A stretch of 4,389 nt of DNA, from IMG/VR virus record IMGVR_UViG_3300029468_000145. The stretch is one strand, 5' to 3'. The notes beneath the pieces are model-generated. The model made no database searches, was not told the origin of the DNA, and was given only the letters and a program-made list of their open reading frames with translations. A program made the translations under genes and the position numbers. Source of the DNA: a virus (lineage: Duplodnaviria > Heunggongvirae > Uroviricota > Caudoviricetes). This document shows, piece by piece, positions 353 to 2,874 of the stretch. Within the stretch, counting starts at the first letter, position 1. The number at the start of each line of letters is the position of its first letter.

Positions 353-394
353 NNNNNNNNNNNNNNNNNNNNNNNNNNNNNNNNNNNNNNNNNN
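353..394. other. Run of 42 N: assembly/scaffold gap or masked sequence
   Basis: Uninterrupted N characters at 353-394. True length and content unknown; reading frames cannot be carried across it. Confidence 0.95.
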
Positions 395-510: not shown

Positions 511-753
511 ATGTTCAAACGCTGCATCACCAAGTGTGGAAGCACACCTGACATCCAAGCTTTTATTAATGAAGATGGTAAGCTTGTTGTTGAGAGGAGT
601 GGTCCTTTTATTAGCAAACAACTTATCATTACCTCTCCAGCGGAGATGGCCGGGGAATGGATAGTTTCTGAACCAGAGGAGTTGCACATCCCGCTTCCTT
701 ATGGCCCTCAGGGACTGATTTATAACCGTTATGTTCAGAAGGAGGCGGGTTGA
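511..753 (+). CDS. Hypothetical small protein (80 aa)
   Basis: ORF with ATG at 511, preceded by a G8 tract (496-503) 7 nt upstream that can pair with the anti-SD. The candidate extended -10 promoter lies just upstream. An in-frame stop at 490-492 fixes the start. Balanced amino-acid composition. The competing antisense ORFs (478-924, 447-689) are low-complexity and run through the promoter. No family recognised. Confidence 0.45.
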   Translation: MFKRCITKCGSTPDIQAFINEDGKLVVERSGPFISKQLIITSPAEMAGEWIVSEPEELHIPLPYGPQGLIYNRYVQKEAG

Positions 754-1032
754 CAATGTCAGGCATAACATCGCCGAGAAATCGAAAGAAAAACAGAACA
801 AGGTAAACGTTGACCTTGCAGCATCAGGCATGGAGTACAGAGAGCGCCTTAACATGCCTGTTATCACTGAGCAGGTATCATGAGAGCAACCTGAGCACTC
901 ACGCGAGTATTTCATGGAGCGCATCAGATACTATCGCGAGCAGTCGTTAAACATGCCCAAGGGAAGCAACCCATGGTATATCGATATGGATGAACAGAAC
1001 GCCAAGAAGTAAACGCAATTTGAACGAATGCG

Positions 1033-1058
1033 AACCCGCCGAGTGCGGGTTTTCTTTT
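1033..1058 (+). terminator. Intrinsic (rho-independent) terminator T1
   Basis: Stem ACCCGC (1034-1039) pairs with GCGGGT (1045-1050) around a 5-nt loop CGAGT, followed by T-run TTTTCTTTT (1050-1058). Lies 21 nt after the TAA at 1010-1012 that closes the frame-2 reading frame. Confidence 0.6.
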
Positions 1059-1063
1059 ATCTG

Positions 1064-1088
1064 AACTCGCTACGGCGAGTTTTGTTTT
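1064..1088 (+). terminator. Intrinsic terminator T2, tandem to T1
   Basis: Stem AACTCGC (1064-1070) pairs with GCGAGTT (1075-1081) around tetraloop TACG, followed by TTTGTTTT (1081-1088). Ends 3 nt before the GGAGA Shine-Dalgarno of the 1102 ORF. Confidence 0.55.
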
Positions 1089-1101
1089 ATGGAGACAAGA
1101 A

Positions 1102-1446
1102 ATGTCAGATTTGGCTATGAAAGTTTTGAAATGGCAATCGACTGGCGATGTTGGCATCAGTAGCGCAACTCTTGCCTCAATCGCATGTGGACTGAAAAAG
1201 AATATCTATGATCATGGCTTCGGTGCTCCACATGACGCAGCCGATTTCAGACGATGCGTTGCACTTGTTGAGCAGATTCCAGAAATCAGAGATTCATTCG
1301 ACAAGGTTGCAAAGCGCGTTCCGGCATTCAAAGGCATCCTCAACGAATGGGATTCTCTCGTTGCTCTGTTGAAGTCTGAAATGAAGATACACGGAAACAA
1401 AGCACCAGAGACTTACAGAAGAATCAGCGAGCTACGCAAGGACTAA
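1102..1446 (+). CDS. Hypothetical protein (114 aa), function unknown
   Basis: ATG at 1102 with GGAGA (1091-1095) 6 nt upstream; TAA stop at 1444-1446. Clean ORF with ordinary composition and no overlapping plausible alternative. I do not recognise a family from the sequence (MSDLAMKVLKWQSTGDVGISSATLASIACGLKK...). Confidence 0.65.
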   Translation: MSDLAMKVLKWQSTGDVGISSATLASIACGLKKNIYDHGFGAPHDAADFRRCVALVEQIPEIRDSFDKVAKRVPAFKGILNEWDSLVALLKSEMKIHGNKAPETYRRISELRKD

Positions 1447-1483
1447 CGCCTCACACTCGATGAGGCCTGTACATATCTGATAG

Positions 1484-1508
1484 AGCCGCTATATGGCGGT
1501 TTCTTTTT
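1484..1508 (+). terminator. Intrinsic terminator-like hairpin T3 directly upstream of the alpA-like gene
   Basis: Stem CCGC (1486-1489) pairs with GCGG (1496-1499), extendable by G-U/A-U pairs, loop ATAT(G), followed by TTTCTTTTT (1500-1508). A second hairpin without a T-run sits at 1448-1466 (GCCTCA/TGAGGC) right after the 1102-1446 stop. Confidence 0.5.
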
Positions 1509-1523
1509 GCCTGGAGAATTAAG

Positions 1524-1715
1524 ATGACCGATACCAGCCTGATTCCTGAGAAAGAAGTGATGAACAAGCTCGGTGTTTCATCACGTCAGACAATCTGGAA
1601 CTATACCAAACGGCACGGATTTCCGAAGCCAGTCAGAACCCACCCCAAATCATACCTTCGTGAAGCTGTTGAAGGGTGGATTCTTAACGGTGGCGTTAAT
1701 CAGAAATGCTCCTGA
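1524..1715 (+). CDS. alpA: AlpA/Vis-family small helix-turn-helix protein (prophage transcriptional regulator / excisionase-like), 63 aa
   Basis: ATG at 1524 with GGAGA (1513-1517) 6 nt upstream; TGA at 1713-1715. Translation has the characteristic AlpA/Xis-type HTH (...EVMNKLGVSSRQTIWNYTKRHGFPKPVR...YLREAVEGWI). Size and position next to a P4-type integrase fit this family. Confidence 0.75.
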   Translation: MTDTSLIPEKEVMNKLGVSSRQTIWNYTKRHGFPKPVRTHPKSYLREAVEGWILNGGVNQKCS

Positions 1716-2874
1716 TGTGCCAGAACAATTTATCAGCGTGAAGCTCATACGCTTTGCGCTGAGCCTCTATCCAGTCGTGTTTATTGTACACGGACATTAT
1801 CCCGCCAAGTTCATGACCGAGCATTCGCTCAGTAACATGAGGCTCGACATTCATCTCGGACAGACGTGTAACAAGCGTTCTTCTGAAATCGTGTGTTCGC
1901 CAGTAACCTAGATCCATCCCTCCCCTTATTCTATTTACGAATCGGTTGGCTGCAGCGATGCTGATCGGTTTGTTTATGTCTTCTCCAGGGAAAAGAACAT
2001 CATTGTACGTTGTCATGGCCTTTTCGAGAAAAGGCTTAATTTGTTCGAAGATTGGACGGCGGATAACATTACCCATCTTGCTATGCTCTTTCGGTACGGT
2101 CCATACGTTGTCCAGCAGGTCAAATTCTGTCTTTGTTGCCAGCCTAAGCTCTGAGAGCCTCGCCCCCCACAGCATAAGCATCTGATGAAGGAGCTTATTT
2201 GACGTAGACGCACGGCTTCTTTCAATAGCAAGCCAAATCTTAGCCAGTTCGTGATACGACAGTACCCGATCCCCTACCTCAGCGCGGGAGCCGAAGTCCC
2301 TTGGTTGGATGCTCATAATTGCGCAACTATCTATCAACTGACGTCGCATGCACCAACTTATTGCTGATCTTAGTTGACTTAGCACTTGCCTTGCTCGGCG
2401 TGGATTATCTCTTTCTTCTTCGGTAAGCAGGTCAACCCATTGCTTAACCGTGATAGAAGATGCCGGACGATTAGGAAAGGCGTCATGCATGCGCTTCATA
2501 ACCGTTGATCGGTAAAGTGCCTGGGTCTTTTCTCTGAGAGTTGTAGAGACGTAGTTGTCGAACCAGTAGTCGAGACACTGGGCGACCGTCATGGAGTTCT
2601 CCACCTTCTCTTCAAAATAAGTGCGTGGATCCGTTCCTGAGAAATAGAGCTTTCGCAAGTCAGCAGTGATCTGTCTGGCATCCTTCAAAGACAGGGATGG
2701 GTATCGACCAAGCCCAAGTCGATTAGGCTTGCCATGCCAGCGATAGCGGTACTGGAACTGGATGACCCCCTTCGGTGAAATTCGTACGCTGAGGCCATCG
2801 GCATCAGCCACTTCTTGTGGGCCCGAATATGGTTTACCATAAATAGTACGCAGTTTTGTGTCGCTTATAGCCAT
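1696..2874 (-). CDS. int: Site-specific tyrosine recombinase, P4-type phage integrase (392 aa)
   Basis: Full-length ORF on the minus strand. N-terminus MAISDTKLRTIYGKP... resembles the P4-integrase arm-binding domain. The C-terminal catalytic region has the recombinase signature: R in ...GARLSEL..., H-x-x-R in ...THDFRRT..., and the H/Y pair in ...LGHELGGIMSVYNKHD.... Stop is TAA (reverse complement of 1696-1698). Confidence 0.95.
   Translation of the reverse strand: MAISDTKLRTIYGKPYSGPQEVADADGLSVRISPKGVIQFQYRYRWHGKPNRLGLGRYPSLSLKDARQITADLRKLYFSGTDPRTYFEEKVENSMTVAQCLDYWFDNYVSTTLREKTQALYRSTVMKRMHDAFPNRPASSITVKQWVDLLTEEERDNPRRARQVLSQLRSAISWCMRRQLIDSCAIMSIQPRDFGSRAEVGDRVLSYHELAKIWLAIERSRASTSNKLLHQMLMLWGARLSELRLATKTEFDLLDNVWTVPKEHSKMGNVIRRPIFEQIKPFLEKAMTTYNDVLFPGEDINKPISIAAANRFVNRIRGGMDLGYWRTHDFRRTLVTRLSEMNVEPHVTERMLGHELGGIMSVYNKHDWIEAQRKAYELHADKLFWHIRSISD

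Follow-up and report, generated by a model that had tools for sequence, protein, structure and literature searches.

The open reading frame at positions 1102–1446 of the window (the whole stretch of 4,389 nucleotides that was analysed) is almost certainly a real coding gene and a member of the ORF114/phrog_1229 family. It stands immediately ahead of the xis-type gene in the N-dependent early-left (pL, or 'exo-xis') operon of a complete lambdoid prophage that lies beside sbcB in E. coli, where it forms a self-contained and dispensable mosaic module of about 430 bp. The gene is already known, as ORF114 of phage 434 since about 1990 and as phrog_1229, and has no assigned function; it is a well-catalogued 'known unknown'. 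The reading that I favour, and hold tentatively, is that it may encode a non-essential early product that interferes with the host or counters its defences and binds a universally conserved ligand.

The coordinates of the gene and of the signals around it are collected in Table 1. The frame comprises 114 codons and is ATG-initiated in the ORF call; the clean frame, the good Shine-Dalgarno sequence and the terminator context described in the initial annotation all hold, with GGAG 7 nt ahead of the start codon and hairpins on both sides of the gene. The first upstream hairpin occupies the position of the terminator annotated as t-L4 (tL4) in the phage 434 record. The letters of its stem differ from those of 434 and lambda while the hairpin and its T-tract are kept, and the start of homology to many relatives falls inside it, at 1047/1048. 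Downstream, the 434 record likewise carries an annotated terminator, t'-I, between ORF114 and xis. Six hairpin/T-run sites were found between 400 and 3060 against 1.9 expected from dinucleotide shuffles, and the upstream pair of hairpins folds at -26.4 kcal/mol (z -2.6). A simple consensus scan, which a weak or non-sigma-70 promoter could escape, found no sigma-70-like promoter site upstream of ORF114. Rfam and tRNA scans of the window gave no match at threshold, and an rsmX candidate was put down to chance (24 bits; the gathering score is 56).

Table 1. Features of the ORF114 region, in coordinates of the window.
Feature	Position	Strand	Basis or remark
ORF114-family gene (phrog_1229), 114 aa, soluble seven-helix single-domain protein	1102..1446	+	ORF list, family match, selection, model
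Shine-Dalgarno GGAG	1091..1094	+	7 nt before ATG; read from sequence; GGAGACAAGAAATG also in phage 434
Upstream hairpin 1 with T-run, terminator-like	1032..1052	+	8-bp stem, 5 GC pairs; fold
Upstream hairpin 2 with T-run, terminator-like	1063..1082	+	within leader common to lambda/434 orf55
Downstream hairpin with T-run, GAGCCGC-TATA-TGGCGGTTTCTTTTT	1483..1502	+	counterpart of 434 t'I; joint to xis-type gene
Mosaic module common to relatives	1048..1478	+	gene, 17-55 nt upstream and ~30 nt downstream
AlpA/Xis-like HTH gene, 63 aa (context, outside module)	1524..1715	+	Phage_AlpA E=0.003, below Pfam cut-off; phrog_66
Tyrosine integrase (context)	1696..2874	-	Arm-DNA-bind_3 8e-18; Phage_integrase 1e-16

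The initial annotation had presented the gene as an ORFan, which it is not. Its product matches phrog_1229 over the full length (E=3e-51, unrounded 3.2e-51; residues 1–114 against profile positions 1–113 of 116) and, along its entire length of 114 residues, shares 95.6% of its amino acids with the ORF114 protein of phage 434 (GenBank M60848.1, protein AAA67902.1). A tblastn search of a phage collection found the gene in 275 records, among them the 1990-era entry M60848. It is present in 963 of 5426 complete E. coli genomes (~18%), O157:H7 included, with up to four copies per genome and the invariable annotation 'hypothetical protein'; Stx phages also carry it, and the classical laboratory phages that have it are 434 and mEp043. 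In a profile search of 1.84 billion representative proteins the family came to 2,846 clusters (50% identity) at E<=1e-3 and 647 at <=1e-10, with hosts in the Proteobacteria, Acidobacteriota, Chloroflexota, Bacteroidota, Patescibacteria and Actinomycetota, in an archaeal Methanoperedens MAG, and also with a giant virus. All 74 diverse members examined match both phrog_1229 and phrog_15291. That no domain could be recognised, as the initial annotation stated, is thus correct for Pfam but not for PHROGs and GenBank, in which the family is already catalogued. Pseudogenisation in most relatives, which had been envisaged, was not observed: ORF114 is intact in 81 of 81 full-length close relatives. 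The dN/dS ratio is ~0.10 (Nei-Gojobori, 55 distinct alleles compared with the window allele), and the gene is under strong purifying selection.

AlphaFold2 predicted the same seven-helix domain in two independent runs, with pLDDT values of 93.4 and 96.5 for 12 close and 74 diverse sequences, respectively. A confident match to a known structural or housekeeping family, the other outcome that had been considered, was found neither in Pfam or NCBIfam nor in the PDB, and PADLOC held no match to ORF114 either. When the 74 members were scanned permissively against Pfam, no weak match was consistent, the best families being hit by 3 of the 74. The PDB contains no relative by sequence, by profile or by fold, including among its solved phage counter-defence proteins (nucleotide sponges, AsiA-like helical inhibitors), to which there is neither fold nor sequence similarity; BFVD gave only uncharacterised relatives, namely PY54 ORF50, a protein of Clavibacter phage CN1A and a Sylvanvirus protein (TM 0.70). 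Helix-turn-helix and winged-helix families (Phage_AlpA, HTH_17, Excisionase-like) are absent from the window protein and from 74 relatives even at E<=1; the weak AlpA/HTH_17 match in this region belongs to the 63-aa neighbour and not to ORF114.

The sequence of the protein is nonetheless sharply constrained at a few positions. In a set of 114 members with mutual identities below 50%, W11, S20, P43, D45, D48, C52 and W83 are invariant, G18, S21, R51, L55 and P60 are at least 95% conserved, and E61 is conserved in 79%. The resulting signature is W, G-x-S-S, P-x-D-P-x-D-[FL]-x-R-C-x2-L-x4-P-E, W, in which the window protein has W11, G18, S20, S21, P43, D45, D48, R51, C52, L55, P60, E61 and W83; at position 46 it carries Ala, against Pro in 84% of members. 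On the model, S20-S21 lie at the start of helix 2, P-x-D-P-x-D and then R51-C52 at that of helix 3, P60-E61 at that of helix 4 and W83-D84 at that of helix 6. Judged from this model, the invariant S-S, D-P-x-D and P-E at helix N-termini could in part have the structural role of helix caps and not form a binding site. The window protein has a pI of 8.95 and a net charge of +3, within a family whose pI ranges from 4.5 to 9.6 (median 6.1), and there is no hydrophobic segment of transmembrane quality. The wide pI range and the lack of a transmembrane segment together indicate a soluble protein that is neither a DNA mimic nor a generic nucleic-acid binder. A DNA-mimic anti-restriction protein of the Ocr/ArdA type was rejected on the same side, the protein being not strongly acidic and finding no fold match in the PDB.

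The window matches E. coli EH01-18-04-A at 100% identity, and in that genome the gene lies inside a complete lambdoid prophage. Outward from the immunity region, one side of this prophage carries genes for a cro-like protein, cII, a replication protein, a helicase, NinB-H, Q, holin/lysozyme, TerS and TerL. The early-left side carries N, Ral, RecT, a gp157-like gene, two Ea22-like genes, a DUF550 gene, an 80-aa ORF, a theta-like pseudogene, ORF114 and the 63-aa HTH gene; the DUF550 gene of this operon encodes a dATP/dGTP pyrophosphohydrolase, and a cI-like gene is also present in the prophage. The description of ORF114 as the cargo gene of an island was therefore wrong, as the element has terminase, lysis, Q, replication, cI/cro/cII, N, Ral and RecT genes. 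Cargo of a phage satellite (PICI-type) was rejected because the element has its own structural, lysis and replication genes, and the helper-interference protein suggested in the initial annotation falls with it, the element being a full prophage and not a satellite. Beyond the 63-aa HTH gene, which matches phrog_66 (excisionase/regulator) at E=2e-8 and is annotated in RefSeq as an HTH regulator, come the integrase, on the opposite strand, and then sbcB (~3056). The integrase is convergent with the early-left operon and at its 3' end shares 20 nt with the HTH gene; since the two genes converge with this overlap, alpA and int do not form an operon. The placement of ORF114 directly upstream of 'alpA-int' is accordingly accurate for the AlpA-like HTH gene, which does follow at 1524–1715, but not for the integrase on the minus strand.

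Comparison with phage 434 and lambda delimits the module. ORF114 of 434 and the window gene are the same gene, with the same Shine-Dalgarno sequence GGAGACAAGAAATG and the same place as the last ORF before a xis-type gene, and with a hairpin/T-run terminator, t'I in 434, behind it. In 434, however, orf55 precedes ORF114 and a lambda-type xis-int follows on the same strand, whereas the window has no orf55 and has a different 63-aa HTH gene and a convergent integrase downstream. Positions 299–548 (tL4 and orf55) and 985–2560 (xis, int, attP) of 434 are 96–97% identical to lambda and contiguous there, so that ORF114 is an insertion of ~436 bp in 434, between orf55 and xis, that is absent from lambda. 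When 434, lambda and the window are compared, the joints fall in hairpin/T-run elements: the lambda joint reads GCCGCCTGATGGCGGTTTTTTCTTGCG..xis, the 434 joint GCCGCCTGATGGAGGTTTTTTTTATTGGAGACAAGAAATG[ORF114]...GCCGCATCAATGCGGCTTTTCTTGCG..xis, and the window joint ...GCGAGTTTTGTTTTATGGAGACAAGAAATG[ORF114]...GAGCCGCTATATGGCGGTTTCTTTTTGCC..HTH. In the window, which is without orf55, ORF114 stands directly behind an orf55-type leader, positions 1048–1104 being 90–91% identical to the orf55 leader of 434 and lambda. Among 82 related loci the homology starts at 1047/1048 (31 loci) or at 1074–1085 (45 loci), and in 67 of them it ends at 1447–1478, 62 of these ends lying at 1474–1478. The genes ea8.5 and orf55 of lambda are like ORF114 in that they fill the distal pL slot between ea22 and xis and are early and non-essential, but they have no sequence or fold relationship to it; Orf55 has been modelled as a small alpha/beta protein, and the structure of Ea8.5 has been solved (PMC8614690). 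ORF114 itself is dispensable, because lambda and many lambdoid phages lack it.

What lies on the 3' side of the gene varies from one relative to another. Near-identical copies of ORF114 are followed by a lambda-type Xis and Int in 22 loci, by a 66-aa AlpA-like Xis and a 386-aa Int in 28 loci, and by the window-type 63-aa HTH gene in 14 loci, and other Xis types replace the 63-aa HTH gene in 50 related loci; at least three unrelated Xis/Int modules are thus paired with near-identical copies. Recombination has set the ORF114 module beside several unrelated integration modules. The homologues in P22-like Salmonella phages and in a Mannheimia phage (62% and 33% identity, respectively) also stand just upstream of the integration genes, and in the Mannheimia phage terminators are annotated on both sides of it. 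No more than 20 of the 114 diverse viral and genomic loci have an integrase-like ORF within 6 kb, which makes the xis-proximal position a trait of lambdoid architecture and not of the family.

Family members occur in phages of other kinds as well. In Mu-like phages the family gene, recognised by profile hits, lies between Gp11 and GemA/Mor in the Gam-Gp11-GemA-Mor region; in PY54 its neighbours are Lar-like, exonuclease and methyltransferase genes, in ~60-kb Vibrio phages it lies near Lar-like and SSB genes, and in an Arthrobacter phage behind an HNH endonuclease gene, and a Clavibacter phage also has a member. The PY54 protein, ORF50 (Q7Y3W5), is 50% identical to ORF114, with a TM-score of 0.94 for its BFVD model; like ORF114, it is uncharacterised and encoded in an early operon. 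The same holds for the Mu-like gene between Gp11 and GemA, which is also unnamed. The neighbours of these genes (Lar-like, exonucleases, Gam, GemA, Mor) differ from those of ORF114. PY54 is a linear-plasmid prophage and the Mu-like phages are transposable, and neither integrates via Int/Xis.

Throughout the family the gene tends to be embedded among co-oriented genes (80% of cases upstream, 72% downstream), and the gaps to them have medians of 4 and 2 nt, respectively. These early-operon neighbours comprise Ral, Lar-like proteins, Abc1/Abc2, Erf/RecT, Gam, RdgC, exonucleases, methyltransferases and MazG- or HD-type nucleotide hydrolases. On clustering, the most recurrent neighbour family was present in at most 8 of 72 non-redundant viral loci, and targeted searches found CCA enzyme, MazG-like, DUF550, HD and RdgC neighbours each in at most 9 of 114 diverse loci, all of them lineage-specific. 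Since no partner exceeds 8 of 72 loci, ORF114 is taken to work on its own. In a scan of 38 multi-domain members for gene fusions the sole annotated partner was a CCA-adding enzyme, in one fusion (P0176) on a 1.9-kb contig without context, and the remaining extensions are heterogeneous, with a largest group of n=4. E. coli 'fusions' with Ea22, Kil, Erf and PF04447 were rejected as a functional clue, as they are mosaic or deletion chimeras. Guilt by association is weak in phage early operons because these operons mix many functions.

Morons of lambdoid phages are extra genes that lie between genes adjacent in relatives. ORF114 is moron-like in being a discrete insertion with respect to lambda, in having a terminator directly downstream (1483–1502) and in being shuffled independently of its neighbours. 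Unlike classical morons, it has no promoter detectable by the consensus scan and is preceded by two terminator-like hairpins, and it is, again unlike these, probably not expressed from the repressed prophage; a swappable early-operon cassette is the better description. In lambda, N antitermination carries pL transcripts through the tL terminators. Because ORF114 has no detectable promoter of its own and tandem terminators stand just upstream, it would be made only on N-antiterminated pL read-through, that is early after infection or induction, and would be silent in the quiescent lysogen. This N-dependent early expression, read from the anatomy of the operon and from established lambda biology, is probable. 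The exo-xis genes are among the earliest transcribed (PMC8614690).

How such an early product might act is suggested by its conservation pattern and by its gene neighbours. In the proposed mechanism, a putative invariant polar site (S20, S21, D45, D48, R51 and C52, together with P43, P60, W11 and W83) would bind or act on one universally conserved cellular ligand, which would be either a small molecule or nucleotide or a highly conserved host macromolecule. In doing so the protein would blunt a response of the host or prepare the cell for lytic growth. A universal ligand is suggested by the presence of one invariant polar site, conserved across phyla, on a surface of variable charge, while a role in host takeover or counter-defence is suggested by neighbours such as Ral, Lar, Abc2, Gam, RdgC, methyltransferases and nucleotide hydrolases. 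The logic of ORF114 in its operon would then be that of Ral, Lar, Gam, Abc2 and RdgC, which are found beside it; it has no part in regulating excision. The accessory factor that the initial annotation had put forward in general terms is compatible with all findings (a dispensable gene, a mosaic module, anti-restriction, anti-nuclease and recombination neighbours), whereas its more specific ideas of a regulator, a helper-interference protein or a defence protein are not retained.

The alternative that survives best, although I regard it as unlikely, is an accessory factor of phage DNA replication or recombination that binds a conserved component of DNA metabolism (the replisome, a recombinase, SSB or DNA ends) and has no role against immunity. 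Depending on the lineage, the neighbours include RecT/Erf, Gam, RdgC, PD-(D/E)XK and other exonucleases, HU-like and SSB proteins, the theta (HolE/HOT-like) pseudogene and dNTP hydrolases of the MazG, HD and DUF550 types, and residues that are invariant across phyla would suit a target conserved to the same degree as the machinery of replication. Yet phages such as lambda and many of its lambdoid relatives do without the gene, none of these partners recurs in more than 8 of 72 loci, and the protein has no nucleic-acid-binding signature, no conserved charge and no resemblance in fold to the known mediators of replication or recombination.

Somewhat less probable again is a modulator of lysis-lysogeny or host physiology which, like the exo-xis products Orf73/TraR-like, Orf63, Ea22 and Ea8.5, would tune host transcription or SOS and hence the efficiency of lysogenisation and induction. 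The exo-xis genes are early and non-essential and shift the lysis/lysogeny balance (PMC8614690; also PMC3824215 and PMC7093339), ORF114 lies in the variable, xis-proximal part of this region, and it takes the same slot upstream of xis in lambdoid phages of E. coli, Salmonella and Mannheimia. A function of this kind sits poorly with the non-lambdoid members, found in Mu-like phages, PY54, ~60-kb Vibrio phages, Arthrobacter and Clavibacter phages and a giant virus, and with the lack of similarity to any exo-xis protein or transcription-factor fold.

Two further readings are much weaker. Prophage defence, superinfection exclusion or interference of a satellite with its helper would suit a mobile module at the prophage end near the integrase, a common place of lysogen-protecting morons. 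Such a protein is improbable here: no PADLOC-DB 2.0 family is matched at E<=1, the gene lies co-oriented inside the repressed pL operon with two tandem terminators and no promoter-like site upstream, the element is complete, and the family is embedded in the early operons of many phages with gaps of 2–4 nt; the defence gene of the initial annotation is given up on these grounds. Finally, a regulator of induction or excision, or a cofactor of integration, coupled to the adjacent alpA/xis-int genes, as also first suggested from the xis-type gene that adjoins ORF114 here, in 434, in the P22-like Salmonella phages and in the Mannheimia phage (33% identity), is rejected as highly improbable, given the unrelated Xis/Int partners of near-identical copies (22, 28 and 14 loci), lambda's possession of the same Xis/Int as 434 without ORF114, the rarity of a nearby integrase (20 of 114 loci), the members in transposable Mu-like phages and in the plasmid prophage PY54, which make no use of Int/Xis, and the failure to detect any DNA-binding domain or family in the protein.

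No mention of phrog_1229 was found in the literature, the 434 genome paper is silent on ORF114 (PMC9119081), the modelling review of the exo-xis region does not discuss it (PMC8614690), and the ORF114 protein motif does not occur in the available part of the text supplements of two phage accessory-gene screens, an absence that counts against the counter-defence reading. As a sequence, ORF114 is an ordinary conserved hypothetical gene of very wide occurrence. It is attractive as a target, one that combines a very large family, strong purifying selection, a sharply conserved polar motif and a confident model without a relative in the PDB, and its presence in 434 and mEp043 makes deletion, complementation and pull-down easy. 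The negative outcome is useful in its own right, in that the gene is neither novel island cargo nor an excision regulator. If the proposed role in counter-defence or host takeover is true, one experiment would annotate thousands of phage genes.

The 3' ends of the gene for the 63-aa HTH protein and of the tyrosine integrase gene overlap by 20 nt. In lambda and 434, xis and int are co-oriented and overlapping; in the window, by contrast, the HTH gene and int are convergent, which implies that transcription enters int from the sbcB side, and antisense interplay at the overlap is possible. The HTH protein (1524-1712) weakly matched mad1 of the 'mads' system among the defence-system profiles of PADLOC (E=4e-4), a match that most likely reflects generic AlpA-type HTH similarity.

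Features of the window flanking the 114-aa gene (ORF114)
Feature	Position	Strand	Remarks
42-N run	353-394		counterpart in the identical E. coli EH01-18-04-A genome (L001), 19954-19995
80-aa ORF, conserved hypothetical	511-753		same operon as ORF114; full-length phrog_9613 match, E=3e-50
Broken DNA polymerase III theta (HolE / phage HOT-like) homologue	731-1012		two ORFs, 731-883 and 914-1012
AlpA/Xis-like HTH gene, 63 aa	1524-1715	+	3' end overlaps integrase
Tyrosine integrase	1696-2874	-	convergent with HTH gene

Upstream of ORF114, the run of N conceals nothing remarkable: as read from the identical genome, it masks only the final codons of the DUF550/PF04447 gene (…APQQDG, then the stop) and some spacer. 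The 80-aa ORF had no match in Pfam, NCBIfam or PADLOC. The theta homologue is split in two by an internal stop, and the RefSeq annotation of the identical genome marks it as a pseudogene; its C-terminal piece matches phrog_1105 (theta subunit).

Two unusual architectures, each a single occurrence, were found among database proteins that carry the ORF114 domain. In P0067 (333 aa) the domain is present twice in tandem, which hints that it may act as a dimer. In P0176 (558 aa; 37-1713 of the 1.9-kb contig L203) it forms a C-terminal fusion to a CCA-adding enzyme comprising a PolyA_pol head, an RNA-binding part and an HD domain. Two members of the family seem to lie outside bacterial viruses: a giant-virus protein, Sylvanvirus A0A3G5AI15 (from the viral structure models of BFVD; TM 0.70, 21% identity), and one encoded at 6001-6324 of a locus (L191) in an archaeal MAG, Ca. 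Methanoperedens; contamination or a binning error is possible for both.

The first hairpin upstream of ORF114 (1032-1052) occupies the position of the annotated terminator tL4 of phage 434 (it was compared with 295-325 of the 434 record and with lambda). The T-tract is the same but the stem sequence is entirely unlike that of tL4, and the homology of relatives to the window starts within this hairpin, at 1047/1048. Hairpin/T-run elements seem to be recombination joints between modules. Five database proteins (P0015, P0026, P0033, P0051 and P0063) consist of ORF114 joined to parts of Ea22-like, Kil, Erf or dATP/dGTP pyrophosphohydrolase. These chimeras testify that, in E. coli prophages, this operon often undergoes illegitimate or short-homology recombination and deletion.
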